Shown here in pieces: positions 10,669 to 38,148 of a DNA stretch of 64,000 bases. Each line of letters starts with the position of its first letter. The first letter of the stretch is position 1. The position numbers were made by a program, and so were the translations under genes. The notes below the pieces were generated by a model that was given only the letters and a program-made list of their open reading frames with translations, was not told the DNA's origin and searched no databases. This DNA is from Rhodospirillales bacterium. GTDB taxonomy: Bacteria > Pseudomonadota > Alphaproteobacteria > Kiloniellales > JACOMY01. The DNA lies in the NCBI GenBank assembly GCA_965227565.1, contig OZ245764.1:5623834-5687833 (forward strand). The letters are read 5' to 3'.

Positions 10669-10746
10669 ATGTCGAGTGATCTGCGGAGTTCGGACACCCT
10701 GGGTTTGCAGTGCCGGCAAGGGAGCAGCCTCCTCGGCCGGTGCTGA
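10669..10746 (+). CDS. Candidate small ORF, 25 aa (MSSDLRSSDTLGLQCRQGSSLLGRC)
   Basis: ATG placed optimally behind the extended SD, with a TGA stop. Too short for the ORF track. The 3' half folds as CCGGC..GGAG-CAGC-CTCC..GCCGG. Confidence 0.3.
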   Translation: MSSDLRSSDTLGLQCRQGSSLLGRC

Positions 10747-10812
10747 CCTCCAATCTCTTCCCAGAGATGGGATGATCAGGGCTGAACCGAGCGGCCCAGT
10801 CACGTAAAGCGG

Positions 10813-10842
10813 GGGCGGTCCTTCCGAAAGGAGGGGCCGCCC
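10813..10842 (-). terminator. Hairpin downstream of the patatin gene
   Basis: 13-bp stem (GGGCGGTCCTTCC / GGAGGGGCCGCCC, including G-U pairs) closing a GAAA tetraloop. The minus strand continues CCGCTTTACG. Confidence 0.45.
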
Positions 10843-10850
10843 TCGGCTCG

Positions 10851-12119
10851 TCAGGGCCAGACAGCGTAGCCCGGCGGGTTTGGCTGCCAGCGATCGCCGG
10901 CCAGTCCATGCTCGTAGCCAAGGTCGTAGAGCGCTTTCATGTAGACGGGATCGAAAACCTCATTCGATTCGCCATCGAACTCTTCTGGAATCCAGATGAT
11001 GTTAAGGTCGATGCCGTCGCGCTGTGCGATCGCGAAGATCTTGTAGATGTCGCCGGTTCCCGCACCGCTCAGCAGGCTGCTGGCTGAGGAGCCTGCGATT
11101 GAAAAAAGGCGGGGACGGACTGGGGCGTAAGGCTTCGAAAGCTTGTTGTTGATGATGACGAAGACCTCACGCTCCATCTTGATGCCCATCGCTTCGTCCA
11201 ACTCCCTCAAGGGAAGATCCGCACTGAAGAGCATCACCTGCTGGGTGGCGCCGCCATCGACATGCATCTCGTCGTAGTGGAGACCGGCTTGGGTTTCGAC
11301 GGGAATCAAGACCGGTGGGAAGACTGCCGGCACTGCTGATGAGGCTTGGATGACGTCGTGAATCAGAACCTTGGCTTTGGGGTGCCCGCTCGCAGCGATC
11401 GCGCTGACGTTCCAGATAACGGGCCGCGCGGCATCGAGGTTGGTGGTTCCGATGAGCAGCGTTCGGCCTTCGTCGTGGGCCTTGGCGAGCTTCTGAACCA
11501 GTTCGTCATCGACATATTTCTCGATCAGCTTGCGGTAACCGCGCGCATCGGTAAGGGCAGTGCCGCCGGTCAGGCCGGCGAAGATGGTGCGGGTGAAGAG
11601 CTGATCGCTCGTGTAGGTCGTATAGGCCTCGGTTAGCTGGTCATCGTAGACCGGACCTAGAAAGGCAAAGACCGCGACGATGGCGCCGGTGCTGATGCCG
11701 GTGACAACGTCGAAAGTCGGCCGGTCGCCGCGTGCCGTCCAACCATTCAAATAGCCGGCACCGTAGGCTCCATCGGCGGCGCCGCCGGAGAGGGCTAGAG
11801 AGACCTCCGGAATGGGCTGCCCGGCTTCGACCAGTGCTGCTTTGGCCGTTCGGATTCGCTCGGCCCTCTTCTCGACCAAGGCTTTCATCTGCAATGCATT
11901 CAGTTCCAGCTGATCACCCCAGGCCCGGACGAGGCCGTCGTCAACATGGATACCGTAGGGTGCCGCCGTGGCGATCTGATTCTCCGGGATCGCGTTCCGG
12001 GTCAACACCGTCGTGCAGGCAGAAAGTAAGACTAACGAAAGAACCGCTAGGGCCGGAAGGAGTCCCGTCACCTCTGTTGGTCGGTTCGGACCGGATCCAG
12101 GTGCAACAAATTCAGCCAC
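10851..12119 (-). CDS. Patatin-like phospholipase, predicted lipoprotein
   Basis: Oxyanion SGGAADGAYG, nucleophile GISTG, catalytic VDGG, and lipobox LLSAC near the N-terminus. Visibly lower GC than its neighbours. Confidence 0.85.
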   Translation of the reverse strand: MAEFVAPGSGPNRPTEVTGLLPALAVLSLVLLSACTTVLTRNAIPENQIATAAPYGIHVDDGLVRAWGDQLELNALQMKALVEKRAERIRTAKAALVEAGQPIPEVSLALSGGAADGAYGAGYLNGWTARGDRPTFDVVTGISTGAIVAVFAFLGPVYDDQLTEAYTTYTSDQLFTRTIFAGLTGGTALTDARGYRKLIEKYVDDELVQKLAKAHDEGRTLLIGTTNLDAARPVIWNVSAIAASGHPKAKVLIHDVIQASSAVPAVFPPVLIPVETQAGLHYDEMHVDGGATQQVMLFSADLPLRELDEAMGIKMEREVFVIINNKLSKPYAPVRPRLFSIAGSSASSLLSGAGTGDIYKIFAIAQRDGIDLNIIWIPEEFDGESNEVFDPVYMKALYDLGYEHGLAGDRWQPNPPGYAVWP

Positions 12120-12888: not shown

Positions 12889-12965
12889 TGGTCGGGGAGA
12901 GAGGATTCGAACCTCCGGCCCCTGCGTCCCGAACACAGTGCTCTACCAGGCTGAGCTACTCCCCG
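12889..12965 (-). tRNA. tRNA-Pro (anticodon CGG)
   Basis: The minus strand reads CGGGGAGTAGCTCAGCCTGGTAGAGCACTGTGTTCGGGACGCAGGGGCCGGAGGTTCGAATCCTCTCTCCCCGACCA. It forms a 7-bp acceptor stem, D arm, anticodon loop TTCGGGA, T arm GGAGG/CCTCT with TTCGAAT, and an encoded CCA. Length 77 nt. Confidence 0.92.
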
Positions 12966-24640: not shown

Positions 24641-24976
24641 ATGCCGACACCCCATAATCCATCCCTCGCGGTAAGGCGCGTGCTGCGCAAGCTTGGTGCG
24701 GACATCCGAGATGCCCGTCGGCGTCGACGCTTGCCAATGGCCGTCGTGGCTGAGCGCGCTTTCACATCCCGCTCGACCCTTCAGAAGGTCGAAGCCGGGA
24801 ACACCAATGTCAGCATCGGCATTTATGCCGGCGTCCTGCAGGCGCTCGGCCTGCTCGAGGGTCTGAGCCAGATTGCCGACATCGGTAACGACTCGGTTGG
24901 TCAAGCGCTGGCCAGCGCCGAACTGCCCAAGCACGCCCACCTCAAGCGGACACGCGGGTCGTCTCGCGATGACTGA
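24641..24976 (+). CDS. hipB: XRE-family HTH antitoxin (HipB-like)
   Basis: HTH RLPMAVVAERAFTSRSTLQKVEAG. Its stop overlaps the hipA ATG (ATGACTGA). Confidence 0.7.
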   Translation: MPTPHNPSLAVRRVLRKLGADIRDARRRRRLPMAVVAERAFTSRSTLQKVEAGNTNVSIGIYAGVLQALGLLEGLSQIADIGNDSVGQALASAELPKHAHLKRTRGSSRDD

Positions 24977-26216
24977 TTTCGAGGTGCATATAGACCTGGC
25001 CGGCCGCACGCACCCCATCGGACTGGCGAGGAGCAACCGCGTTCGAGGCAGGGAGGCCATCCTCTTCGAATACGATGGGGCGTGGCTCGCCGATCCGGAC
25101 CGCTTCTCACTCGAGCCTTCCCTTGCCCTGACCCGCGGTCTGTTCGCGCCCCCTGCCGGATCGTCGATTTTCGGGTCCATTGGAGATTCTGCGCCCGACA
25201 CATGGGGGCGCCGACTGATGCAGCGCGCCGAACGCCGACAAGCCGAACGCGAAGGCCGTGCCGTTCGCACGCTCGCGGAAAGCGACTACTTGCTTGGCGT
25301 CGCCGACGAGACCCGCCTGGGTGCCCTTCGATTTCGCTTGCCGGGCCAAGAGGCCTTCCAAGCACCGATGCGCGACGGCGTTCCCGCCCGGATCGAACTC
25401 GGGCGGCTTCTCGGGATCACTGAGCGGATTTTCCGCGACGAGGAAACGGACGAGGACCTTCAACTCATCTTCGCTCCCGGCTCCTCCCTTGGCGGTGCGC
25501 GGCCCAAAGCATCGGTCATCGATCAGCACGGATACCTCTCCATCGCGAAGTTCCCGAAGGAGACCGACGACTACAGCATGGAGACTTGGGAGGAGATTGC
25601 GCTACGCCTGGCTGCCCAGGCCGGCATCACCACCCCGCATCATGAACTGGTGGAGGTCGCCGGCAAGGCAGTGATGCTGTCGCGGCGCTTCGATCGCGCC
25701 GGCTCTATCCGCATTCCCTTCCTCTCTGCGATGGCGATGCTGGGCGCCAAGGACGGTGAACGCGGCAGCTATCCGGAGATCGTGGACGCCCTGGCGCAAC
25801 ATGGCGCGAAGGGGAAGACCGACGCACAAGCCCTCTACAGGCGCGTCGTGTTCAACGTGCTGATTTCCAATGTCGACGATCACCTGCGCAACCATGGTTT
25901 CCTTTGGTTCGGTAAGGCCGGATGGTCCCTTTCTCCTGCCTATGACCTCAATCCTGTGCCAACCGACCTCAAGGCGCGTGTGCTGACAACCAACATCGAC
26001 CTCGACGAGGGCACCTGCTCGATCGACCTGCTGGAGAGCGCGGCGGAACTCTTCGCACTCACCCTGGCGCAGGCTCGCGCGATCATCAGGGAGGTCGGGA
26101 CCACCACCGCGACTTGGCGCGATATGGCCAAGTCGGTCGGTGCCCGAACGGCCGAGATTACCCGAATGGCCAGTGCGTTCGAGCATAGCGATCTCACACG
26201 TGCGCTGGCCCTCTGA
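24969..26216 (+). CDS. hipA: HipA-family serine/threonine kinase toxin
   Basis: Start at MTDFEVHIDLAG, inside track ORF 24873-26216. Contains GSSLGGARPK (P-loop-like) and the catalytic NVDDHLRNHGF motif. Confidence 0.85.
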   Translation: MTDFEVHIDLAGRTHPIGLARSNRVRGREAILFEYDGAWLADPDRFSLEPSLALTRGLFAPPAGSSIFGSIGDSAPDTWGRRLMQRAERRQAEREGRAVRTLAESDYLLGVADETRLGALRFRLPGQEAFQAPMRDGVPARIELGRLLGITERIFRDEETDEDLQLIFAPGSSLGGARPKASVIDQHGYLSIAKFPKETDDYSMETWEEIALRLAAQAGITTPHHELVEVAGKAVMLSRRFDRAGSIRIPFLSAMAMLGAKDGERGSYPEIVDALAQHGAKGKTDAQALYRRVVFNVLISNVDDHLRNHGFLWFGKAGWSLSPAYDLNPVPTDLKARVLTTNIDLDEGTCSIDLLESAAELFALTLAQARAIIREVGTTTATWRDMAKSVGARTAEITRMASAFEHSDLTRALAL

Positions 26217-26309
26217 AGGGAGCTTCCGGCCTCGATCAGGACGATGGACCGGCCTCGCTGTGGAACCGCTCCGGGCTCAGGCACTCGTTCTGGAAGGTGC
26301 CGTCAAACA

Positions 26310-27857
26310 TCACTCCCACTCGATCGTCCCCGGCGGCTTCGAGGTCACGTCGTAGACCACCCGGTTGACCCCGCGCACCTCGTTCACGATGCGCGTCGCC
26401 ACCTCGGCGATGAAGCTGTGGTCGAAGGGGTAGCTTTCGGCCGTCATGCCGTCGGCCGAGGTGACCGCGCGCAGCGCCAGCACGTGGTCGTAGGTGCGCT
26501 GGTCGCCCATGACGCCGACCGTGCGCACCGGCAGCAGGACCGCGAAGGCCTGCCAGATGGCATCGTAGAGGCCGGCGGTGCGCAGGGCCTCGATGTAGAT
26601 GGCATCGGCCTTGCGCAGGATCCCGGCCTTCTCGGCGTCGACCGGGCCCGGAATGCGGATCGCCAGGCCCGGGCCGGGGAAGGGGTGGCGGCCGATCAGG
26701 GCCTCGGGCAGGCCGAGCTCGCGGCCGAGCGCGCGGACCTCGTCCTTGAAGAGCTCGCGCAAGGGCTCGACCAGCGCCATCTTCATGCGCTCGGGCAGGC
26801 CGCCGACGTTGTGGTGGGTCTTGATGGTGACCGACGGGCCGCCGCGTGGCGAGACGCTCTCGATCACGTCGGGATAGAGGGTGCCCTGGGCCAGGAAGTC
26901 GGCGCCGCCGATCTTCTTCGCCTCCTCCTCGAAGACCTCGACGAAGCTGCGGCCGATGATGCGGCGCTTCTCCTCCGGGTCGGCCACGCCCGCTAGCCGC
27001 CCGAGGAAGAGCGCGGAGGCGTCGCGGTCGACCAGCGGGATGTTGTAGTGGTCGCGGAAGAGGGCGACCACCTCGGTCGCCTCGTTCAGCCGCATCAGGC
27101 CGTGGTCGACCAGGATGCAGGTGAGCTGGTCGCCGATCGCCTCGTGGATCAGCACCGCGGCGACCGAGGAATCGACCCCGCCGGAGAGGCCGCAGATCAC
27201 TCGCTTGCTCCCGACCTGCGCGCGGATCGCCTCGACGGCGGACTGGCGGAAGGCGGCCATGGTCCAGTCGCCCGCACAGCCGCAGATCTCGTGCGCGAAG
27301 CGGGCGATCAGCTTGGCGCCGTCGGGGGTGTGGATCACCTCGGGATGGAACTGCACGCCGAAGAAGCGGCGGCTCTCGTCGGCGGTGATCGCGAAGGGCG
27401 CGCCCTCGGAGCGGCCGATCGAGGTGAAGCCGGGCGGCAGGGCGACCACCCGGTCGCCGTGGCTCATCCAGACCTGGTGGCGCTCGCCCGGCTGCCAGAC
27501 CCCGGCGGTCAGCGCCGTGCGGTCGGTCACCTCGACGAAGGCCTTGCCGAACTCCTGGTGGTCGCCGGCCTCCACCACGCCGCCGAGCTGGTGCACCATG
27601 AGCTGCTGGCCGTAGCAGATGCCGAGGATCGGCAGGCCCTGCTCGAAGAGGGCGGCGGGCGCCTGCGGGCTGTCGGCGGCAATCGCCGAGGCTGGGCCGC
27701 CGGAGAGGATGATGCCCCTGGGCTGCACCGCCTCGATGCGGTCCATCCCGGCATTGAAGGGCAGGATCTCGCTGTAGACGCCGGCCTCGCGCAGGCGTCG
27801 CGCGATGAGCTGGGTCACCTGGGAGCCGAAGTCCAGGACCAGAATCGTATCCGTCAT
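26310..27857 (-). CDS. guaA: GMP synthase (glutamine-hydrolysing)
   Basis: 515 aa. GATase domain (GICYGQQ), PP-loop SGGVDSSV, and C-terminal PPGTIEWE. Confidence 0.95.
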
Positions 27858-28095
27858 GATCAGGAAAGAGCATAAGGACCGAGTCCTGTCCAGACCAGGC
27901 GCCGGCGCCCAGCCCGCAAGCCTGCCGTGCGCCCTCGACCCCGCCCGCAGGCTTGACGGGAGGGCCTTGCGACGGCGAGGTTACCGCCGTTTGGGCCGGT
28001 CGATCCCCCCGATTCGCGGTGCCGGTTTTCCGCGTCTCTTGTGGCCTTGCGTGACCGCTGCGTCTGCGGGCCCTCCCCGGCACCGCAAGCCCCCT

Positions 28096-29010
28096 TCAGT
28101 CGGCAGACAGCAGTTCGGAGGCTTCGCTCTCGATGGCCGTCAGGCCCTGGCGGCGGCCCAGGTCGGCGGCCGCCTGGAGCCACGACCGGCTCGCGTCCGT
28201 GAGCTCACCGTCGATCATGCCGGCCCGCCCGGCGCGCAGGTAGAGATCGGCGGCGACCGCCGGCTGGCCGCGGGCAAGGGCGGCAGTGCCGGCGGCACCC
28301 AGTGCGCGCGCAAGCCCGTTCAGGTCCTGGTCCATGCGGCGCAGCCTGGCGATCTCCAGCAGGCTGGCCTCCGCGCCGGCGACGTCGCCCGAAAGCCAGG
28401 CCGCATGCGCGCGCAGCTCCAGCAAGTCGGCCGAGTCGTCGGGGACACCGTCGGCAGCCATCCGGGCGATCGCCTGGTCCAGCAACGCCCTGTCGCGCGC
28501 GTCGGCGGCGATCAGGCCCAGAAGCAGGGCGGCCCTCGCCTGCAGGGCGGGATCGGCGCCGGCGGGTGCCAGGGCAATGTCCTGGACCAGCCGGCGGGCG
28601 ATCTGGTTCTGCCCCATGAGGTAGTGGCCCCAGCCGGCCAGGACGATCCAGCGCGGGCCCGCGGCCGCCCCGCGCCGCTCGAGCTCGGCGCCGGTCCGCT
28701 CCGCCAACAGGACGGCCTCTGCGCCGTCGCCGAGCCGCAGGGCCGTCAGCCCCCGCTCGAAGGCGGCGTCGGATATGGCGTCGATGGCGTCGGCACGCTT
28801 GGCCTGTTCGAGGGCGCGGTCATAGAGCAGTGCTGCTTGCGAATAGCGGCCATCGGCGAAGGCGATGCGGGCGAGACGCAGGTCGTTCCGGTACTCCCGG
28901 TCGATGCCGTGCGGCTTCTCGGCGACCGGTTCGCTACCGCCGCAGCCGGCCAGGCCGAGGGAGAGGAGGAGCGAGACCAGCAAGGCGGCCGCCGGGAGAG
29001 CTCCTGTCAT
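28096..29010 (-). CDS. TPR-like helical-repeat lipoprotein
   Basis: Lipobox LGLAGCGG. Ala/Leu-rich helical repeats. Its ATG overlaps the MlaD-like stop (ATGA 29007-29010). Confidence 0.6.
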   Translation of the reverse strand: MTGALPAAALLVSLLLSLGLAGCGGSEPVAEKPHGIDREYRNDLRLARIAFADGRYSQAALLYDRALEQAKRADAIDAISDAAFERGLTALRLGDGAEAVLLAERTGAELERRGAAAGPRWIVLAGWGHYLMGQNQIARRLVQDIALAPAGADPALQARAALLLGLIAADARDRALLDQAIARMAADGVPDDSADLLELRAHAAWLSGDVAGAEASLLEIARLRRMDQDLNGLARALGAAGTAALARGQPAVAADLYLRAGRAGMIDGELTDASRSWLQAAADLGRRQGLTAIESEASELLSAD

Positions 29011-30020
29011 GGACGGATCTCCTGCACGGACAGCGGACCCTGGGACGGCGGCGGAGGGGTCCCGCCGACAAGCCAGTTCCGCTGCATCGTCAGCAGGAGG
29101 TTCTCCAGCTCCTGCAGGGTCACCTGAAGCTGTGCGATCAGAAGCTGCACGTCGCCGGAGGCCCGTCCGGCATTGCGCGAGAGTTTGACGATACCGGGAA
29201 CCGCCTTGCGGACCTCGTCGATCGTGCCGCGGGTGCTGCGGACGATGGCAGGTACTCCCGACTGCGTGTTGCTAAGGGCTCTGGCCAGCACACCGAACTC
29301 GCCGCTCGCGGCGGCGAGCGTGTCGACCAGGATACCGACGCCAGCCAGTTGCTGGCGCAGGTCTTCCAGGGTCAGCAGCATCTCCTGGACCAGGCTGTCG
29401 TCGGTCAGAAGCCGGCCGGCCGCTCCCTTCCCCTGCAGGGTTGCGGTCGTTATCGCCGCGACGTCGCTGAGCGTCGTCTGCAGGTGTCCGTCGGCGCTGT
29501 TGAGGGACTCGATGAGGTCCGCCAGGCCGGTGATGGCACGGTGAGTCTCCTCGACCACCGGGATGACCCGATCGCGAACCTCACTCAGGAGATCGCTGAC
29601 GCTTTCCGACGAGACGGTCTTGGGATCGACGGCGAGGACGGCGAAGTCCCAGTCGAGCGGCAGGCCCTTTCCGCGGGTGATCTCCAGATAGGCCGCGCCG
29701 GCGATACCGAACTGTCGCTGGATCAGCACCCGGGAATCGCGCCGGATGAAGGGGGTCCAGCGTTCGTCGATCCTGACCAGGGCATAGAAGCTCTCGTCGG
29801 GCCTGATGACGATCTCGTCCACCGTGCCCGCCGGCGTTCCCAGCACGTCCACGGTGGCACCGGTGGCAAGCCCGGCCACCCCGCTTTCCGGGAGCAAGAC
29901 GCGCAAGCTGCGCTGGCTGCGCAGCAGCTCGTCCAGGACCCGGCTCTCCAGCAGCGCGCCCAGGACGATGACCAGCGCGACGACGACGAAGACCGCAACG
30001 CGGCGGCGCGGCCGGTGCAT
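29007..30020 (-). CDS. MlaD/MCE family protein
   Basis: N-terminal TM VAVFVVVALVIVLGALL, then an MCE beta-barrel region (GLATGATVDVLGTPAGTVDEI) and a long helical C-terminus. An alternative TTG at 30041 would overlap the upstream stop. Confidence 0.8.
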   Translation of the reverse strand: MHRPRRRVAVFVVVALVIVLGALLESRVLDELLRSQRSLRVLLPESGVAGLATGATVDVLGTPAGTVDEIVIRPDESFYALVRIDERWTPFIRRDSRVLIQRQFGIAGAAYLEITRGKGLPLDWDFAVLAVDPKTVSSESVSDLLSEVRDRVIPVVEETHRAITGLADLIESLNSADGHLQTTLSDVAAITTATLQGKGAAGRLLTDDSLVQEMLLTLEDLRQQLAGVGILVDTLAAASGEFGVLARALSNTQSGVPAIVRSTRGTIDEVRKAVPGIVKLSRNAGRASGDVQLLIAQLQVTLQELENLLLTMQRNWLVGGTPPPPSQGPLSVQEIRP

Positions 30021-30037
30021 TTCCCGTGTGAGATAGG

Positions 30038-30760
30038 TCAAGGCCTGCCCTCCACCGCGCGCAGAGCCAGACCCCGGAAGCGGAGCCGACGGTCGACCGG
30101 TAGGGTCCGGAATTCCGCGGCGGTCGTGCCGCGAACGCAAGCCAGGGCGGCCGCCCCGCGATCGGTCGCCTGCCGGCAGAGGTTCAATATGGGGCCCGGA
30201 GGCAGGGCCGTTGACGCAACGGCGGCGGCCTCGAGCAGCACCAGGCCCGGCTCGCCCAGGAATGCGCGGGCCAGAGCCGCCCGCGCGAGGTCTGACGGCG
30301 AGGTATCCTCGATCTCGCCGACCGGCAGGCCCGGCAGGTCGAGCAGACGGCAGAGGTCGTCGGCCTCCGCCAGGATGGCCTCCCGGGACCGGCGGGTGTG
30401 GTAGCGCTCCACCAGCGCCAGGTTCTCCGGGACCGTCAGGGTCTCGATCCAGCTACCCGCGCCAAAGGCGTGGCCGATGCTGCCGCGGCGCGCGCGCAGG
30501 AACGATGTGTCGCGGCCGCGGAAGTCGGACCAGCGTCGGTTCAGGACGATCAGATCCCCGGCACGCGGCCTGTCGATGCCGACGAGCGCATCGAGAAGCC
30601 AGCGCTCGTAGCCCGGCTCGTCGATCTCGGCCAGCGCCAGCTCCCCGGGGAAGAGATCGAAGCTGCAGGCGATCACGGGATCCTCCGGGCCCCCGCCGCA
30701 AAGGCGCAGACCGGACGCATGGACGACGGCATCGACAGCTGCAGGGGTGGGCGCGCGCAT
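30038..30760 (-). CDS. ABC-ATPase (MlaF-like) homologue with all catalytic motifs degenerate
   Basis: 240 aa and alignable by eye to MlaF. The Walker A position reads IDEPGYER, the Q-loop region HAFGAGSW, the signature TSPSDL, the Walker B LVLLEAAA, and the H-loop ACVRGT. Confidence 0.65.
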   Translation of the reverse strand: MRAPTPAAVDAVVHASGLRLCGGGPEDPVIACSFDLFPGELALAEIDEPGYERWLLDALVGIDRPRAGDLIVLNRRWSDFRGRDTSFLRARRGSIGHAFGAGSWIETLTVPENLALVERYHTRRSREAILAEADDLCRLLDLPGLPVGEIEDTSPSDLARAALARAFLGEPGLVLLEAAAVASTALPPGPILNLCRQATDRGAAALACVRGTTAAEFRTLPVDRRLRFRGLALRAVEGRP

Positions 30761-30770
30761 CGGGGCTGTC

Positions 30771-31613
30771 CTAGCGCCAGATGCTGAAGGCGAGCGCGAT
30801 CAACCCGGCGAAGACGACCGCCCGGAAGAACCCGCGTGCCAGCGCCCGGTCCGTCCGGTACCTGCGCATCGGCTCGATCGCCGTATCGCACATCGCAACC
30901 AGGGCAAACCAGGTCATGGTCGCAGCCTGAGCAAGCGCGATCGGCAGTTCCGCCCGTCCGATCTCGGAGAGGACCTGCAAGGGCAAGAGGCCGGAATCGA
31001 AAGTCATGACACCGGTCAGGGCCGCCATCACGAGACCGGCAGCCACAGCCAGGACGCCGAAGAGCAGGGTCAGAACGATTGCGGAGATTGTCCCGGCAAG
31101 GACGCCCGGCAGGATGACGAGAGCCAAAGGATCGATTCCTACGGCGATCAGCGCGCGCATCTGACCGCCTCTTCGGAGCGACACCAGCGCCCCCGACAAC
31201 AGGAAACCGCCGCGCCCCAGTAGAACGAGCATCACCACGATCGGGGCGAACAGGGTCGTGAGGAGATTGCCCAGGGCGCGCCTGATGAAGTCCAGATCGC
31301 CGAACTCGCGCAGCCAGTAGGAGCCCTGCCCGACGATCACGATTCCCGATAGAACCGCGATCACCGTGACGATGGGCAGGGCCTGCACGCCGATGCGATC
31401 GAGCGCCAGCACGAACTGGTCGCGCACGGGCGCACGCCAGGTGCCCGGCGAAACCGCCAGCCAGGCCAGGCTGACCGAGAGCGACAGGCTGTCGAGCAGC
31501 CAGAGCAGCGGCGGACGGCCGAGACTCTGTCTCGCCCGGCCCGCAGTCCTTGCGCGCCGGCCGCCCGGCCCTCCATCACGCGCCCGGTCGGACATGGTGG
31601 CTTTCGTCCGCAT
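30771..31613 (-). CDS. MlaE-like ABC permease
   Basis: Polytopic. VQALPIVTVIAVLSGIVIVGQG and LLGRGGFLLSGALVSLR..MRALIAVGIDP parallel MlaE conserved blocks. Alternative start at 31595. Confidence 0.75.
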   Translation of the reverse strand: MRTKATMSDRARDGGPGGRRARTAGRARQSLGRPPLLWLLDSLSLSVSLAWLAVSPGTWRAPVRDQFVLALDRIGVQALPIVTVIAVLSGIVIVGQGSYWLREFGDLDFIRRALGNLLTTLFAPIVVMLVLLGRGGFLLSGALVSLRRGGQMRALIAVGIDPLALVILPGVLAGTISAIVLTLLFGVLAVAAGLVMAALTGVMTFDSGLLPLQVLSEIGRAELPIALAQAATMTWFALVAMCDTAIEPMRRYRTDRALARGFFRAVVFAGLIALAFSIWR

Positions 31614-31616
31614 CCG

Positions 31617-34058
31617 TCAGGCCGCGCGACCGACGACGAGGGAGACGTCGATGCATTCGCCGGCTTCGAGGTGATACCGCCCGCGGCGTCGGAAGACGAA
31701 ATGGTCGGAGAGCAGCTCGACGGTTCGGCCGCCCACCTGGATGGCTCCACCCGGTGCGGAGGCGGCCAGGCGTTCGGCCAGCCGGGCGGGTCCTCCCCAG
31801 AGGTTGATCATCTCGGGCTCGCTCAGCGACCAGCCAAGGGCCGTGCCGGTATCGATGCCGATGGCAAAGGCCGGTTCCATGGCGTGCGAGCGGAAGAGGG
31901 CACGGAGGTCGTACTGGATCTCGAGGCCGGCATCCAGGAGCCTGTCCGCGCCATCCCGCTCGCTCTCGGCCAGGCCTGACGCCAGCTGAAACCGGCTGCC
32001 GAGCAGCTTGACGTAGGGGATGTCGTGACGCTCGGCCACCTCCCTGACGATCTCGACGATCCGGTCGAACAGGGGGCGATCCCCATCGACTGCCTGGCCC
32101 AGGCCGTGGTCGTCGCGGCAGGTCAGTTCCAGAACCGAAAGCCCGGGAACCGCCGTGGGAGGCCCAGCGCGTTCGCGCCCAGCGAACCAGCCGGTTCTCG
32201 CCGGTTCGCGCAGGCTCACCACTGAGGGGTCGCCGACAAGCAGGGCGGCGGCAGGCGCCGTCTCCTTCCGGCCTGTGCCCGGCCGCGCCGCGCGCAGGTC
32301 CGAATCGAACTCCTCGACTTCGAGCGCCAGCAGTGCAACGGCGGCCGCATAGTGCGCTGCGAGCCTTGCTCCCACCTCCGAGCGGCGCATCAGGTCCGGC
32401 GTTTCCAGGACCACCAGCCCGAAACCCTTGCCGCGCGCCAGGATCGGCGCAACGAAGACCGGGATATCGGGCGAAGTCTCTTCACGCGAACGAGGCGATG
32501 CCACGAAGGGCCGTTCCGCCTCGGCTCCTCTCAGGGTGACGTCCTCGTCGCGGCTCATGGCATCGAACACCTCTGGCGCCTGCCAGCGTTCGACAGGCAT
32601 CAGCAGGGTCTGCCCCCTGTTCTCGGCATCGTAGCAGGCAAGACAGCGGAGCTCGTCGCCGTAACGTCGCCAGATGCTGGCGCTGCGGGCATCCGTGTTC
32701 CGCGCAAGCGACCCGACCAGTTGCGCCAGGGCGTGGCCGGGATCGCCCTGCGCCTCGCGCACGGTGCCCCGGATACCCTCGAAGATGCCCTCCAGTCCCG
32801 CCAGCCACCTCCGCTGTTCCTGGATCACCCGCGCTCGCCGATCGATCCGCCGGTTCTGAAGGAACAGCCAGACCGCCAGGCAGAGCGCGCAAAAGATCAG
32901 CACCCCTGAGATGATCATGCCGATCAGGCTGTTCCGCACGAGAAAGTAGGTAAAATCACTCTCTGGTGCTATCAGCACCATCCATAGATTTGCTTCTGTT
33001 GTTTCTTGCAAAGAAGAAACCAGGATGAAGACTTTCTTGCCGTCAACCTGGGTGAATTCCATCCGGTCCCCATGGACCCGGATGATGTCATAGGCGCGGA
33101 CCAGCGCCGGATCGCCCAGGTCTTCGACGGTGGGCAAGCGCTCTGCGCGGAGGAGGGGGGCGGAGCTGTCGAGAAGCGAGGGGGCCGCGACGACATCGCC
33201 GTTCCCGGCCAGGAGAACGGCATGCCCGTTCTCGACGACGTCCAGATCCATCAGATAGCGGCTGAGTGTGTCGACCCTGACATCGGCGCCGACCACGGCT
33301 TCGACCCTTCCATCGGGACTTCGGACCGCCAGTGACACCGTCGCACCCGGTGCGCCGGATGTGAAGAACTGGTAGACATCGGTCCAAGAGACCTTGTCTC
33401 CGCCCCGCTCTGCCAGCTTGTACCAGGGGCGGCTGCGTGGGTCGAAGGTGTCATCGGGAAGGTCCAGGCGCTCGATCAGGGTACCGTCCAAACTGCGCTT
33501 AGTCAGCGTAACGTGGCGCCCGCCTGCTGCGAAGACGATCCGCTTCGTATCGAAGCCGCCCTCGTCGTTCTTCCTGATCATCAGGAAATCGCCGTTGCTG
33601 CGGGCCACGTAAACGGCGGAGATCAGCCCGAGCTTCCTCAGGGCGGAAAGAGCCAGACCTTCGAAGCCGATGTTCCCGGGATTGTTGCTCACGATCTCCG
33701 CACCGAACTCGACGACCCTCTTGGCCTGTGAGAGCGCCCCGTCTGTCTGGGCGCGGATGCGGTTCTCCAGCACGCCGAGAAAGTTCTCCGCGAGGACGAG
33801 CACATCTTTCTTGTTACTCTGATAGTTCAAGAACGTCACCACGAACATTCCGCTAAAAATCAAGATGACCACCATAATAGGCAGCGTCTGGGCGAACAGG
33901 CGCCGCCGCTTGTGCCTTCTGAATTTTGCAGGATCAGTCGCTATGTCTATGATGCTGTGACTGGCCATCGTCGCGCCTACCCGAGCTTTGGTCGCCTCCC
34001 AAGGAAGGTCACGGCAGTATCGCCGAACCTCATGCTGTTTCACAGTAGGCATATCCAT
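31617..34058 (-). CDS. Membrane sensor: dCache-like periplasmic domain, TM, GAF-like domain, degenerate class III cyclase-homology domain
   Basis: 813-aa ORF (alternative start at 33968). Two TM segments bracket a Cache-like region. The C-terminus aligns by eye to nucleotidyl cyclases but lacks both metal-binding Asp and the transition-state Asn. Confidence 0.7.
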   Translation of the reverse strand: MDMPTVKQHEVRRYCRDLPWEATKARVGATMASHSIIDIATDPAKFRRHKRRRLFAQTLPIMVVILIFSGMFVVTFLNYQSNKKDVLVLAENFLGVLENRIRAQTDGALSQAKRVVEFGAEIVSNNPGNIGFEGLALSALRKLGLISAVYVARSNGDFLMIRKNDEGGFDTKRIVFAAGGRHVTLTKRSLDGTLIERLDLPDDTFDPRSRPWYKLAERGGDKVSWTDVYQFFTSGAPGATVSLAVRSPDGRVEAVVGADVRVDTLSRYLMDLDVVENGHAVLLAGNGDVVAAPSLLDSSAPLLRAERLPTVEDLGDPALVRAYDIIRVHGDRMEFTQVDGKKVFILVSSLQETTEANLWMVLIAPESDFTYFLVRNSLIGMIISGVLIFCALCLAVWLFLQNRRIDRRARVIQEQRRWLAGLEGIFEGIRGTVREAQGDPGHALAQLVGSLARNTDARSASIWRRYGDELRCLACYDAENRGQTLLMPVERWQAPEVFDAMSRDEDVTLRGAEAERPFVASPRSREETSPDIPVFVAPILARGKGFGLVVLETPDLMRRSEVGARLAAHYAAAVALLALEVEEFDSDLRAARPGTGRKETAPAAALLVGDPSVVSLREPARTGWFAGRERAGPPTAVPGLSVLELTCRDDHGLGQAVDGDRPLFDRIVEIVREVAERHDIPYVKLLGSRFQLASGLAESERDGADRLLDAGLEIQYDLRALFRSHAMEPAFAIGIDTGTALGWSLSEPEMINLWGGPARLAERLAASAPGGAIQVGGRTVELLSDHFVFRRRGRYHLEAGECIDVSLVVGRAA

Positions 34059-34226
34059 CCAACGGGCCGGCGCCCAAGAGGCGTGTCACTTCGTCCTCGC
34101 CCGGTCGCGGTATCGTTGTGGGAAAAGACGGCAAGCGACCTGCGCCCCCAAACGGCGGCCTCTTCACGGCAGCGGGTGGGGAGGTCAGTGCGGATGCCGC
34201 CGGTTGGGATCCGCCGGGAAGAGGAG

Positions 34227-35174
34227 ATGCGAGCCCCCGTGAGCGCCGTCGTCATCACCGAGTTCATCGAGGAGGGCGCGCTGGAGGCCTTCCCGCCCGG
34301 CATCGACCTGCTCTACGACCCGGCGCTGGTGGACCAGCGCCATCGCCTGCTGGCCGCGCTCGGCGGGGCGGAGGCGCTGATCGTGCGGAACCGCACGCGG
34401 GTCGACGCGGAGCTCCTGGAGGCGGGCCCGCAGCTCAAGGTGGTCGGCCGGCTGGGCGTGGGGCTGGACAACATCGACCTTTCCGCCTGCCGCCAGCGCG
34501 GCATCGCCGTCTATCCGGCGGTCGGCGCCAACAGCGTCTCGGTGGCGGAATACGTGATCGCGGCGGCGCTCCTCCTGCTGCGCGGCGCCTTCTTCATGGC
34601 CCCCGAGGTGCTGGCCGGCGCCTGGCCCAGGCAGAAGGCCCGCGGGCTGGAGCTCGCCGGGCGCAGCCTGGGGCTGGTCGGCTACGGCAGCATCGCCCAG
34701 GTCGTGGCACAGCGCGCCAGGGCGCTGGGGATGAGCGTGCTGGCGAGCGATCCCTACCTACCGAGCGATCATCCGGCCTGGCTCGCGGCCGAACGGCTGT
34801 CGCTCCGGGACCTGCTGGCGCGCGCCGACGTTGTCAGCCTGCACGTGCCCCTGCAGGCCGAGACGCGGGGGCTGATCGACGCCGCGGCCATCGCCTCGAT
34901 GAAGCCCGGCGCGATCCTGATCAACACCGCGCGCGGCGGCGTGGTCGACGAGGCGGCCCTGGTGGCAGCACTGGAGACCGGTACCCTGGGAGGCGCGGCG
35001 CTGGACGTCTACGAGGAGGAGCCGCTCACCGCCGCGGCCGCCCGTCGCTTCCGCGGCGTCGAGCGCCTGCTGCTGACGCCGCACGTCGCCGGGCTGACGG
35101 AGGAGTCCGACCGCCGGGTCTCGCGCCTGACCGTCGAGAACGTGATCCGCGGGCTGGGTCTGCTGGATGGCTGA
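34227..35174 (+). CDS. D-isomer-specific 2-hydroxyacid dehydrogenase (PGDH-like)
   Basis: Start at MRAPVSAVV behind a GAGGAG RBS. NAD motif GLVGYGSIAQ and catalytic TARGGVVDE...TPHVAG. Confidence 0.85.
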   Translation: MRAPVSAVVITEFIEEGALEAFPPGIDLLYDPALVDQRHRLLAALGGAEALIVRNRTRVDAELLEAGPQLKVVGRLGVGLDNIDLSACRQRGIAVYPAVGANSVSVAEYVIAAALLLLRGAFFMAPEVLAGAWPRQKARGLELAGRSLGLVGYGSIAQVVAQRARALGMSVLASDPYLPSDHPAWLAAERLSLRDLLARADVVSLHVPLQAETRGLIDAAAIASMKPGAILINTARGGVVDEAALVAALETGTLGGAALDVYEEEPLTAAAARRFRGVERLLLTPHVAGLTEESDRRVSRLTVENVIRGLGLLDG

Positions 35175-36177
35175 GCTGGAACAGATCGAGCCCGGGGCTG
35201 CACGGGCCCTGGTCGTGCGGGCTCTGACAGCGGCCGGCTGCGCCGAGGCCAACGCCGCCTCGGTCGCCGAGGCCCTGGTGGCGGCCGAGATCGACGGGCA
35301 GGCCGGACACGGGCTCTCGCGGGTTGCGACCTACTGCGAGCAGCTCCGCGTCGGCAAGGTCGTGGGCGACGCCGTGCCTTCGCTCGCGAGTCCGGCGCCT
35401 GCCTTCCTTTCGGTCGACGCCGCCCAGGGCTTCGCTTTCCCGGCCTTCGATCTGGCGATCCCGGCGTTGGTCGAGACCGCGGCGGAAACCGGTGTCGCCG
35501 CCGCCGCGCTCCACCGCTCGCACCACTGCGGCCAGGCCGGCCGCCACGTCGAGCGCCTCGCCGAGGCCGGTGTCATGGCGCTGCTCTTCGCCAACACGCC
35601 CAGGGCCATGGCCCCCTGGGGCGGGCAGCAGCCGGTCTTCGGCACCAATCCCATCGCCTTTGCCGCACCGCAGGCAAACGCTCCGCCGCTGGTGGTCGAC
35701 CTCTCGCTCTCCAAGGTGGCGCGCGGCAAGGTGGTGGCAGCGGGAAAGCGCGGCGAGGAGATCCCCGAAGGCTGGGCGCTGGACAGCGCCGGGCGTCCGA
35801 CCACCGACCCCAGCGAGGCGCTCGCCGGCTCGATGATCCCGCTGGGCGATGCCAAGGGGGCGGCGCTCGCCTGGATGGTGGAGATCCTGGCGGTCTGCCT
35901 GACCGGCGCCTGCTTCAGCTTCGAGGCGACCTCCTTCCTGGGTCCCGAGGGCGGCCCGCCCTCCGTCGGCCAGCTCCTGATCGCCTTCGACGTCGAGCGC
36001 CTCTCCGGCGGCGCCTTCCGCCAGCACCTGGCCCGCCTCACCGACCAGGTGGCCCTGCAGGAGGGCGCACGCCTGCCGGGCAGCCGCCGCCTCGCCAGGC
36101 GCGCCGCCGTCGCGCGCGATGGCCTGGCGGTGCCGCGGGTGATCCTGGAGGAGGTGCGGGGGCTGGCGGGTCGGTAG
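35167..36177 (+). CDS. Ldh_2 family (malate/L-lactate/sulfolactate dehydrogenase-like) oxidoreductase
   Basis: 336 aa. Contains GQAGHGLSR, typical of the Ldh_2 family. 8-nt overlap with the upstream gene. Confidence 0.8.
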   Translation: MAELEQIEPGAARALVVRALTAAGCAEANAASVAEALVAAEIDGQAGHGLSRVATYCEQLRVGKVVGDAVPSLASPAPAFLSVDAAQGFAFPAFDLAIPALVETAAETGVAAAALHRSHHCGQAGRHVERLAEAGVMALLFANTPRAMAPWGGQQPVFGTNPIAFAAPQANAPPLVVDLSLSKVARGKVVAAGKRGEEIPEGWALDSAGRPTTDPSEALAGSMIPLGDAKGAALAWMVEILAVCLTGACFSFEATSFLGPEGGPPSVGQLLIAFDVERLSGGAFRQHLARLTDQVALQEGARLPGSRRLARRAAVARDGLAVPRVILEEVRGLAGR

Positions 36178-36653: not shown

Positions 36654-36761
36654 GCTAGAGCAAATCCCGAGCAGATGGAGTCATCTTCGACGACGATTTT
36701 CTTTTAAAGCAATATGCTAGAGTAGGATTCGTGAACGTAAGCGAACGCATCCTGCTCTAGC
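36654..36761. repeat. CTAGAG-containing repeats / imperfect hairpin in an AT-rich convergent intergenic region
   Basis: GCTAGAGCAAATCC (36654-36667), GCTAGAGTAGGATTC (36716-36730) and the inverted ATCCTGCTCTAGC (36749-36761). The last two form a 12-bp stem with one mismatch that spans the MATE stop codon. Confidence 0.4.
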
Positions 36762-38148
36762 GCCACCCGGAGAGCCGGATGGCGCCGGCGGTGAAGAGGC
36801 CGTAGGCCGCCATGCCCGCCGCGATCGCGATGAAGACGCCGGCAAGCCCCAGGTCCGTGGCCGCGGCCAGCAGCAGCGCGCCGCCGATGGCGAGCGCCAT
36901 GCGCAGCACGCTGCCCAGCACCGGCCAGACCATCCGCCCGGCGCCCTGGCTGGCGAAGTAGAGCGCCAGCCCCAGCGCGAAGAGGGCGTAGAAGGGCGCC
37001 ACGCTGTGGAAGTAGAGCCGGCCCGCGGCCAGCGCCTGGGTGTCCTCCGGCGCCAGGAAGAGCCCAAGCCAGAGGTCCGGGGCCGCGGCGAAGAAGAGGC
37101 CGATCGACCCGACGATGGCGGCGGCGGCGCAGGATCCGGTCCAGCCGACCCTGAGGGCCCTCGCCCGGTCGCCGGCGCCGATGTTGGCCCCCACCATGGC
37201 GGTCATGGCAGCCCCGATCCCGAAGACGATGGGGATCATCAGGAACTCGAGCCGCGCGCCCAGGCCGTAGCCGGCCAGCGCCGCCTCGCCATAGCGGCCG
37301 ACCAGGGCGGTCATGATGACGATGGTGACCACGGTCTGCAGGGCGTTGAGGGAGGCGATCACGCCGACCCGCAGGATATCGAGGAAATGGTCGCGCAGCA
37401 GGCCGGCGAAGCGCACCGCGATGCCCGTCCGCCCGCCCAGCACGTGGGCCAGCGCGGCCGCCGCGCCGACCGCCTGGGCGATCACCTGGCCCGCGGCCAG
37501 CCCTGCCATGCCCAGCTCCGGCAGGGGACCCCAGCCCAGGCCCAGGCCGCCGGCGAGCGGGATCGAGACCAGCGAGACCAGCACCAGGACGAGGGCCGGC
37601 GTCATCATGTTGCCGGAGCCGCGGATCACCGAGAGGGTGGCGTGGCAGAGCCAGAGGAAGAGGCAGCCCGGGAAGAAGACGAAGGCATAGGCGAGCGCCG
37701 CCTCGACCGCGCCCGCGCCGCCGCCCAGCGCCTCGAAGATGGCCCTGCCGAAGAGGAGGATGACGAGGGCGGAGGCCAGGGCCGCGACCAGGGCGATGAT
37801 CCAGGCGGCCGCCACCAGCCGCCCGGCCCGGTCGGGCGAGCCCGCACCCAGCGCGCGGGCCACCGCCGAGGAGATGGCGCCGCCCACCGCGCCGGCCGAG
37901 AGCATCTGCGAGAGCATCACCAGCGGGAAGACCAGCGCCAGGCCGGCGAGCTCCGAGACCCCCATGAGCCCTGCGAAGGCCGCCTCGGCGATGCTCATCG
38001 CCGTCGCCACCAGCATCGCCAGCACGTTGGGCGCGGCCAGCCGTGCCAGGGTCGGACCGATCGGCCCCTCCAGCAGCCGGCGCGTCCTTGCCGCCCTGGC
38101 GCGTGCAGCGGTGTCGGCCTGATCGGCAGTCGCGGAGATGACGGACAT
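36757..38148 (-). CDS. MATE family efflux transporter
   Basis: 463 aa, 12-TM MATE-like sequence. Divergent from an HxlR regulator. Confidence 0.85.
   Translation of the reverse strand: MSVISATADQADTAARARAARTRRLLEGPIGPTLARLAAPNVLAMLVATAMSIAEAAFAGLMGVSELAGLALVFPLVMLSQMLSAGAVGGAISSAVARALGAGSPDRAGRLVAAAWIIALVAALASALVILLFGRAIFEALGGGAGAVEAALAYAFVFFPGCLFLWLCHATLSVIRGSGNMMTPALVLVLVSLVSIPLAGGLGLGWGPLPELGMAGLAAGQVIAQAVGAAAALAHVLGGRTGIAVRFAGLLRDHFLDILRVGVIASLNALQTVVTIVIMTALVGRYGEAALAGYGLGARLEFLMIPIVFGIGAAMTAMVGANIGAGDRARALRVGWTGSCAAAAIVGSIGLFFAAAPDLWLGLFLAPEDTQALAAGRLYFHSVAPFYALFALGLALYFASQGAGRMVWPVLGSVLRMALAIGGALLLAAATDLGLAGVFIAIAAGMAAYGLFTAGAIRLSGWR

Follow-up and report, generated by a model that had tools for sequence, protein, structure and literature searches.

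Background

MCE systems have a central role in the lipid homeostasis of the outer membrane, and both how they are energised and in which direction they transport are debated. The locus described here is an MCE-type cassette of five genes in a 64,000-nucleotide stretch of DNA from a Rhodospirillales bacterium (assembly GCA_965227565.1, contig OZ245764.1); we refer to this whole stretch as the window, and it is our view of a 6.47-Mb replicon. The closest known systems are MlaFEDB and the PA3211-PA3214 or Pqi-type systems, followed by the mycobacterial Mce systems, and the cassette differs from them in lacking a competent ATPase. Other ABC proteins with roles beyond pumping are also relevant: BceAB-BceS, FtsEX and MacB are mechanotransmission systems and SUR and CFTR serve regulation or gating, and all of them bind and hydrolyse ATP. 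The cassette has neither a competent ABC subunit nor, in the receptor that heads it, a competent cyclase domain. We tentatively favour, at slightly under an even chance, the reading that it is a receptor-gated MCE conduit that needs no ATP, with two former enzymes both non-catalytic.

Like MlaFEDB of E. coli and A. baumannii, the cassette encodes an ABC-fold subunit between an MlaE-family permease and an MlaD/MCE protein. In MlaFEDB this subunit, MlaF, is a competent ATPase; its counterpart in the cassette is without any ATP motif. The cassette has no MlaB, MlaC or MlaA in or beside it, its MCE protein is about twice the length of MlaD, and it has a TPR lipoprotein and a membrane receptor in addition. 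With PA3211-PA3214 of P. aeruginosa and other PqiABC-type systems it shares the gene layout of permease, ABC subunit, MCE protein greatly extended at its C terminus, and lipoprotein (PMC13631591). Its lipoprotein is, however, a TPR superhelix and not PqiC-like, its ABC subunit is dead, and a dCache-GAF-pseudo-cyclase receptor comes first. The likeness to mycobacterial Mce1-4 lies in the MCE protein, which aligns best with Mtu_fam_mce, and in MceG (8fed), which is among the matches to the ABC fold; those systems use six different Mce proteins and two YrbE permeases, and the gene of their live ATPase lies elsewhere, whereas the cassette has one MCE protein, one permease and a dead ATPase in cis. 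As in BceAB-BceS, FtsEX, MacB, SUR and CFTR, the ABC module is proposed to transmit conformational change rather than to pump, yet its nucleotide site is gone and its permease is of the MlaE type, not the FtsX/MacB type. According to the introduction of PMC13631591, ATP is not used by every system that transports lipids across the envelope, and MCE systems that lack an ABC ATPase, or are possibly passive, are acknowledged in the field (PMC13631591).

A preliminary description of this DNA had not recognised the cassette as a described system, and our searches agree. There is no dedicated Pfam or NCBIfam model for the pseudo-ATPase or the lipoprotein, PADLOC gave zero hits for the cassette, and a full-text literature search, whose coverage is incomplete so that an earlier description elsewhere is possible, found no account of it. 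The cassette is apparently undescribed, and is a variation on known MCE-type systems.

Layout of the cassette

The features of the cassette, from the receptor onwards, are listed below.

33969..34228: intergenic stretch from which the sensor gene and a 2-hydroxyacid dehydrogenase gene diverge, presumed cassette promoter region
31617..33968 (open reading frame open to 34058), minus strand: receptor gene, 783 aa; first transmembrane segment, dCache_1, second transmembrane segment, GAF, cyclase-homology domain
33132..33644, minus strand: dCache_1 ligand-binding core (Pfam), amino-acid-type motif FDPRSRPWY ... Y ... D
32331..32738, minus strand: GAF domain, weak in the window copy (GAF_3 E-value 0.025; in the family, GAF (PF01590) with a best E-value of 4e-16)
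31620..32066, minus strand: pseudo-cyclase, homologous to class III cyclase domains (alignment to 4p2m, a mycobacterial Cya structure)
30771..31613, minus strand: MlaE-type permease gene, 280 aa (Pfam MlaE)
30038..30760, minus strand: pseudo-ATPase gene, ABC-fold, 240 aa (ABC_tran sub-threshold, motif alignments, AlphaFold2, Foldseek)
29007..30041 (or start 30020), minus strand: MCE (MlaD-family) gene (Pfam MlaD, TIGR00996)
28096..29010, minus strand: TPR-superhelix lipoprotein gene (lipobox, AlphaFold2, Foldseek)

The preliminary description had claimed five tightly packed genes on one strand, and reading the junctions directly bears this out: the open reading frame (ORF) listing gives five intact, near-contiguous minus-strand ORFs over 28096-33968/34058. 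The sensor and MlaE genes are separated by 3 nt (TGA-cgg-ATG, gap at 31614-31616) and the MlaE and ABC-like genes by 10 nt (TAG-gacagccccg-ATG, gap at 30761-30770), while the ABC-like and MlaD genes share the 4-nt overlap TTGA (30041-30038) and the MlaD and lipoprotein genes the 4-nt overlap ATGA (29010-29007). An ATG at 30020 is an alternative MlaD start; in the closest relative (L069, assembly GCA_046233115.1, 70% identical), the MlaD homologue is called as 344 aa with the identical 4-nt overlap. These junctions would be compatible with translational coupling. The sensor ORF was present as described at 31617-34058, though its start is most likely 33968 rather than 34058, as the database copy P0010 begins at Met31, position 33968, giving 783 aa. 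No convincing minus-strand match to a sigma-70 promoter was found in 33969-34228.

The described domain order of sensor, MlaE, ABC-like protein, MlaD/MCE protein and TPR lipoprotein is likewise supported by Pfam and NCBIfam matches and by structure models. Hidden Markov model (HMM) searches for dCache_1, GAF, Guanylate_cyc, MlaE, ABC_tran and MlaD were run, and returned GAF only weakly and ABC_tran below threshold.

An ABC-fold protein without an ATP site

The ABC-fold protein falls short of ABC_tran (PF00005) at 16 bits against a 25-bit cut-off, and only 26/47 members of its family reach E<=0.01. The Walker A motif GxxGxGK[ST] is missing, with AEIDEPGYERW in the window opposite GASGSGKTTLL of BceA. 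When the family profile was aligned to BceA, the same stretch read eaddparerelaD, the Q-loop FQ was opposite fg (Gln to Gly), the signature ISGGQKQR was opposite lapedLara (TSPSD in the window), Walker B FADEP was opposite llEsa (LLLEAA in the window), and larsd stood opposite the strand that contains the H-loop His, which is missing. The same five features (Walker A, the Gln of the Q-loop, LSGGQ, the Asp-Glu pair of Walker B and the His of the H-loop) were missing in 66/66 genomic homologues. An HMM search of 1.84 billion representatives recovered 445 proteins (50%-identity clusters) at E<=1e-30, and among the top 148 representatives none has G....GK[ST]. With Walker A, the signature motif, the catalytic Glu and the H-loop His all lacking, canonical ATP binding and hydrolysis are excluded.

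What the family has kept instead is its own set of motifs, shared among the 66 homologues: L[SA]xxDLARAACVRAFLGxP, NILLPQLHHTRR and GLPGLP. The predicted AlphaFold2 model is confident (predicted local distance difference test, pLDDT, 85.2; predicted template modelling score 0.85), and Foldseek matched it with probability 1.00 to the domains of MacB, FtsE, YbbA, LolD, BceA, MceG and MlaF at template modelling scores of 0.68-0.78 and 16-22% identity. By this model, the protein retains the nucleotide-binding-domain fold. The best solved sequence matches of the family profile were BceA, LolD, FtsE and MacB. The most conserved family-specific stretch lies just after the Q-loop position, and this part of an ABC domain normally contacts the permease.

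Four members of the family (P0004, P0006-P0008) carry the JGI label 'phospholipid/cholesterol/gamma-HCH transport system ATP-binding protein'. Since the family is without ATP-binding motifs, the ATP-binding labelling is a systematic annotation error.

The receptor carries a pseudo-cyclase

The receptor matches dCache_1 (63.6 bits), GAF_3 (weakly, E-value 0.025) and Guanylate_cyc (40.6 bits, from profile position 36), and two transmembrane segments were read off its translation. Across 41 homologues Pfam finds dCache_1 in 41/41, Guanylate_cyc in 40/41 and GAF in 38/41. Its cyclase homology (PF00211) is above the 21.9-bit cut-off, and this match invites annotation as a cyclase. The domain has the fold of class III cyclase receptors such as Cya (4p2m) and the GAF-cyclases (e.g., cyanobacterial CyaB1), with an upstream GAF, a membrane sensor and the purine Lys. 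Unlike in those, the catalytic residues have been lost family-wide, and the receptor is fixed in an operon with a transporter.

In the alignment to 4p2m, GD has become GS, WGD has become WGG and VN has become AR; KLLGS stands opposite KVSGD, and NLWGGPARLAER aligns opposite Cya YDVWGDAVNVASR. The second metal Asp (now Ser), the substrate Asp and the transition-state Asn are therefore lost in the window copy. Arg occupies the transition-state Asn position while the transition-state Arg itself is kept, and the strand of the first metal Asp does not align. Retention was counted over 135 sensors, drawn from genomes and metagenomes and including those of the window and L069:

Transition-state Asn: retained in 0/135
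Transition-state Arg: retained in 9/135 (lost in 126/135)
Second metal Asp: retained in 19/135 (lost in 116/135)
Purine-specifying Lys: retained in 115/135
Purine-specifying Asp or Glu: retained in 125/135

The aligned column of the first metal Asp was without Asp in 135/135, although an Asp three residues downstream of the canonical position is near-invariant (xFxDP) and this shift makes the column ambiguous. As judged from these alignments, the receptor cyclase domain cannot make cAMP or cGMP: with the metal Asp pair, the Asn and mostly the Arg lost family-wide, no cyclic nucleotide output would be expected. Because the purine-specifying Lys and Asp/Glu are kept in most members, the domain may bind nucleotide without catalysis. 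The claim that both nucleotide-handling modules look catalytically dead therefore holds in the window and in the family alignments.

These residues also bear on a rival explanation, namely that the cyclase fold performs altered chemistry, or that pseudo-cyclase and pseudo-ATPase form a joint ATP site, so that the system is powered by nucleotide after all. The conserved purine recognition (Lys 115/135, Asp/Glu 125/135), the near-invariant shifted Asp and a Walker B variant, LLEEP, in ATPase homologues of Desulfobacterales all speak for such non-canonical use. We consider it very unlikely, given that the glycine-rich phosphate-binding loop is found in 0/148 ABC-fold proteins, that the Asn is lost in 135/135 cyclase domains and the Arg in 126/135, and that the literature search found no precedent.

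The input side of the receptor

The amino-acid motif (AA_motif) of dCache_1AA domains corresponds to Y121, R126, W128, Y129, Y144 and D173 of PctA (PMC10589655). The window motif matches these positions as F-DPRS-R-P-W-Y ... Y ... D, with Tyr replaced by Phe at the first and spacings one residue longer than in PctA. In the family it reads [YF]DPRxRxW[YF] ... Y ... D and is kept in most sensors (columns over 50 sensors). The nearest solved relatives of the core are amino-acid binders, PctA/B/C, Mlp24/37 and 7k5n. From motif and solved relatives together, the pocket is predicted to be of the amino-acid type.

A subset of receptors departs from this pattern. In the Komagataeibacter/Novacetimonas sensors (L038, L044, L047-L058, L062) the carboxylate-binding Arg is His and the amine-binding Asp is Asn, while Gluconacetobacter, Commensalibacter (L040) and Asaia sensors have the Asp-to-Asn change with the Arg kept. 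The FFT motif after the pocket is altered throughout the Komagataeibacter/Novacetimonas, Gluconacetobacter, Commensalibacter and Asaia copies. The pocket changes from Arg to His and Asp to Asn suggest that the Komagataeibacter/Novacetimonas clade may recognise a ligand that differs from that of the rest of the family.

In a second rival the cassette is primarily a signalling device rather than a transporter: MlaE, MCE protein and lipoprotein would report the lipid state of the envelope or outer membrane inward through the dead ATPase to the receptor, in the manner of BceAB-BceS flux sensing. The output of the pseudo-cyclase would then be nucleotide binding or an action on a partner encoded elsewhere. 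The pseudo-ATPase profile does match best to mechanotransmission-type proteins (BceA, LolD, FtsE, MacB), the purine-specifying residues are conserved, and a GAF domain is present. Against this, the cassette has none of the usual output domains (kinase, GGDEF, HTH, live cyclase) and none is conserved beside it, and the receptor's own periplasmic ligand-binding domain suggests that input arrives through dCache. We regard the signalling device as improbable.

Permease, MCE protein and lipoprotein

The remaining three proteins supply the conduit. The permease matches Pfam MlaE at 69.9 bits, above cut-off, with A. baumannii MlaE as its best solved match (E-value 3.5e-12), and it is a normal MlaE. 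The MCE protein matches Pfam MlaD above cut-off (29.4 bits) and aligns to TIGR00996 Mtu_fam_mce over residues 50-319, which comprise the MCE domain and a helical region; it consists of an N-terminal transmembrane helix and a single MCE domain followed by ~ 200 aa of C-terminal sequence, and a phmmer search against the PDB gave zero matches. MlaE and MCE genes are encoded together, which places the cassette among MCE/Mla systems, and they are so in 63/64 loci. No domains of MlaB (STAS), MlaC or MlaA were found in the five genes or their immediate neighbours.

The lipoprotein has a signal peptide and an LAGC lipobox that is invariant in the family alignment. Its residue +2 is Gly, so it is presumed to be placed in the outer membrane. 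Pfam gives only weak TPR matches. The AlphaFold2 model (pLDDT 88.5) has 14 helices and its best Foldseek matches are TPR proteins; there is no match to PF03886, and the predicted fold is a TPR superhelix instead of a PqiC-like one.

Conservation of the gene order

Two scans were performed: a narrow pseudo-ATPase alignment (A3) applied to genomes, one per species, gave 65 loci, and a pseudo-cyclase alignment applied to metagenomes gave 80 loci. Gene order was then counted by tblastn with the window proteins. The cassette was found in Acetobacteraceae (Komagataeibacter, Gluconacetobacter, Novacetimonas, Asaia, Commensalibacter), Rhodospirillales (Skermanella) and Stellaceae, and further in Desulfobacterales, Acidobacteriota, Binatia, Gammaproteobacteria (including a Thiomargarita metagenome-assembled genome, MAG) and Phycisphaerales.

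The receptor lies directly upstream in 52/60 pseudo-ATPase-anchored loci with room for it, and additionally in L012 and L013, where it is present with a cyclase domain too diverged to score. MlaD follows the pseudo-ATPase in 63/64 loci, and the lipoprotein comes next in nearly all, with missed copies recovered by clustering of flank ORFs. From the other side, MlaE follows the pseudo-cyclase in 66/68 metagenome loci with room, as well as in L135 (a scoring artefact), which leaves L095, with a short ORF instead, as a genuine exception to the receptor-MlaE order. Every metagenome locus with at least 3.6 kb downstream (36/36) has MlaE, pseudo-ATPase and MlaD. Since the order recurs in more than 100 independent loci, the five-gene arrangement is far beyond chance, and the expected synteny of the sensor with Mla-like genes is borne out by dozens of genomes and metagenomes, for loci anchored on the pseudo-ATPase and on the pseudo-cyclase alike.

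Compared with L069, the five cassette genes have ratios of nonsynonymous to synonymous substitution (dN/dS) of 0.21-0.37, next to 0.17 for guaA, and are under purifying selection. The sub-threshold ABC_tran, GAF and TPR Pfam scores of the window copy could suggest a further rival, in which the genes are pseudogenes in decay or stand side by side without a common function. The conservation data refute it and leave it a virtually negligible probability: the ORFs are intact and in the same order across several phyla, dN/dS is low, each family has invariant motifs of its own, and both predicted folds (ABC-like and lipoprotein) are confident.

Clustering of 1875 flank ORFs revealed no sixth gene shared across clades, and in no clade a live MlaF or other ATPase that is conserved nearby. 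Apart from missed lipoproteins, a single cluster spanned several clades; this candidate co-encoded ATPase turned out to be a mix of unrelated ABC ATPases. The patchy spread across phyla suggests transfer of the cassette as a unit. The second-closest full cassette, with 41-58% identity over the five proteins, is on a contig (L004, CAZTHL010000016.1) of a MAG labelled 'uncultured Mycobacteriaceae', possibly through mis-binning of the contig or through horizontal transfer.

Loci with other partners

The preliminary description called the operon sensor-led, and this is so in most loci without being obligatory. L061 and L068 (Falsiroseomonas and Roseomonas) and L053 consist of the four-gene core without a receptor. 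The gene upstream of the core is mfd in L068; a 523-aa ORF upstream in L061 was rejected as a spurious Arg/Gly/Pro-rich frame.

In two further loci, L002 and L043, a different cyclase-domain protein is found. L043, from a Phycisphaerales MAG, has a receptor-less cassette and a convergent soluble GAF-cyclase protein that scores 207 bits to Guanylate_cyc. Both metal Asp residues and the Lys are kept in it, while WGQTVSTAAH marks the replacement of the substrate Asp, Asn and Arg, so that it may be an intermediate form of pseudo-cyclase. Upstream in this locus lies a reverse transcriptase of a group II intron. The features listed for this GAF-cyclase/intron region are:

10705-11940, minus strand, in L043
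5384-6751, minus strand, in L043

At L002:5570-9106 (plus strand), a distant receptor-less cassette is followed by SH3_3, an M48 peptidase and, three genes downstream of the cassette, a CHASE2-cyclase that retains all six catalytic residues. Among the partners of the cassette, the dCache receptor is thus dominant but not alone. Because a cyclase-fold protein recurs beside it in three architectures, the functional link between cyclase fold and transporter is strengthened.

Proposed mechanism and its alternatives

The ligand-gated or regulatory MCE machine put forward in the preliminary description is also the reading we prefer, and nothing contradictory to it was seen. Because fold, strand core and the stretch after the Q-loop are what is most conserved, the pseudo-ATPase would still dock on MlaE. 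As neither a catalytic nor a DNA-binding output is encoded in the cassette, the MlaE-MCE conduit is the sole effector available, and it is from this that we infer coupling of receptor to transporter. A dimeric receptor would couple through a pseudo-cyclase dimer to a pseudo-ATPase dimer beneath MlaE. Ligand would enter from the periplasm via dCache and possibly from the cytoplasm via the GAF or a pocket of the cyclase domain, and its occupancy would open or close a passive route by which a hydrophobic substrate could move between the inner membrane and the TPR lipoprotein. In its strongest form the proposal is of a new class of envelope machine made with two co-opted pseudoenzymes, an ATP-free trans-envelope MCE conduit in which the ABC subunit is a purely mechanical adaptor and the dCache receptor, with its pseudo-cyclase docked on that adaptor, directly opens and closes the conduit; we put this forward as possible but doubtful.

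Several observations weigh against a receptor-gated conduit that needs no ATP. Some Desulfobacterales pseudo-ATPases have Walker B LLEEP, in which the catalytic Glu is still in place, and the Arg (9/135) or the second Asp (19/135) survives in a few cyclase domains, so residual or non-canonical chemistry is possible. The receptor-less L053, L061 and L068 indicate that receptor gating is not essential to the core machine. Finally, a live MlaF-like ATPase encoded elsewhere, beyond the 64-kb view, could energise MlaE.

This last point is the basis of a third rival, in which the transporter is still driven by ATP: the ABC-fold protein of the cassette would be structural or regulatory, and an MlaF/MceG-type ATPase would replace it or pair with it in trans. 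There is precedent in mycobacteria, where MceG serves several Mce systems and has its gene away from the mce operons that it energises (background in PMC9947336). The permease is a normal MlaE, and the window covers only 64 kb of 6.47 Mb. Even so, the dead subunit takes precisely the place of MlaF, with a 10-nt gap on one side and a 4-nt overlap on the other, and has been kept under purifying selection in more than 100 loci. The presence of a single MlaE gene implies that the dimer is symmetric and that its two docking sites are identical, and no clade conserves a live ATPase near the cassette. ATP supply in trans is, on balance, unlikely.

If the receptor-gated conduit is correct, a chemoreceptor-type sensor would have a transporter gate as its output instead of an enzyme, a kinase or a second messenger. 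The near-fixed pairing with a dead-cyclase receptor suggests such a new signal output, direct control of a transporter. With at least ~ 445 50%-identity clusters in several phyla, the cassette forms a natural clade that has the MlaE-MCE architecture and has fully lost the ATP site. The clade is a ready-made experiment on MlaE-MCE without ATP hydrolysis, and so bears on how MCE systems are energised; its carriers include the culturable Komagataeibacter, Gluconacetobacter and Skermanella. Two well-populated families of bacterial pseudoenzymes are added, and annotations would need correction, as the labels transport ATP-binding protein and adenylate/guanylate cyclase are both unlikely to be true.

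Flanking genes

The gene guaA (26310-27857, minus strand; GATase and GMP_synt_C) lies ~ 238 nt 3' of the cassette on the same strand. A 615-aa ORF at 26236-28083 (minus strand), beginning 12 nt past the lipoprotein stop, was considered as a sixth operon gene and rejected as a high-GC artefact: it has no family matches, and the real gene in another frame is guaA. This ORF exemplifies the long spurious ORFs found in DNA of ~ 70% GC. On the other side, a divergent pair at 34229-36177 (plus strand) encodes a 2-hydroxyacid dehydrogenase and an Ldh_2 protein (malate/L-lactate dehydrogenase family). The same pair adjoins the cassette in L069, beside TctA/TctC genes. Both guaA and the dehydrogenase pair are outside the five-gene unit.

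Just past guaA, at 24873-26216 (plus strand), is a HipA-like kinase toxin gene (HipA_C E-value 1.8e-45, with a weak N-terminal Couple_hipA match). L069 has a TIR_2-domain protein (L069:16341-17714, plus strand) in this place 3' of guaA, and the site appears to be a variable islet beside the conserved block. An anti-phage defence role, prompted by the HipA neighbour and the TIR genes in L069, was rejected on account of the zero PADLOC hits and the unconserved flanks. Elsewhere, the window contains a MatE efflux gene at 36757-38148 (minus strand) and a tRNA-Pro(CGG) at 12889-12965 (minus strand), which was identified by Rfam and tRNA scans.

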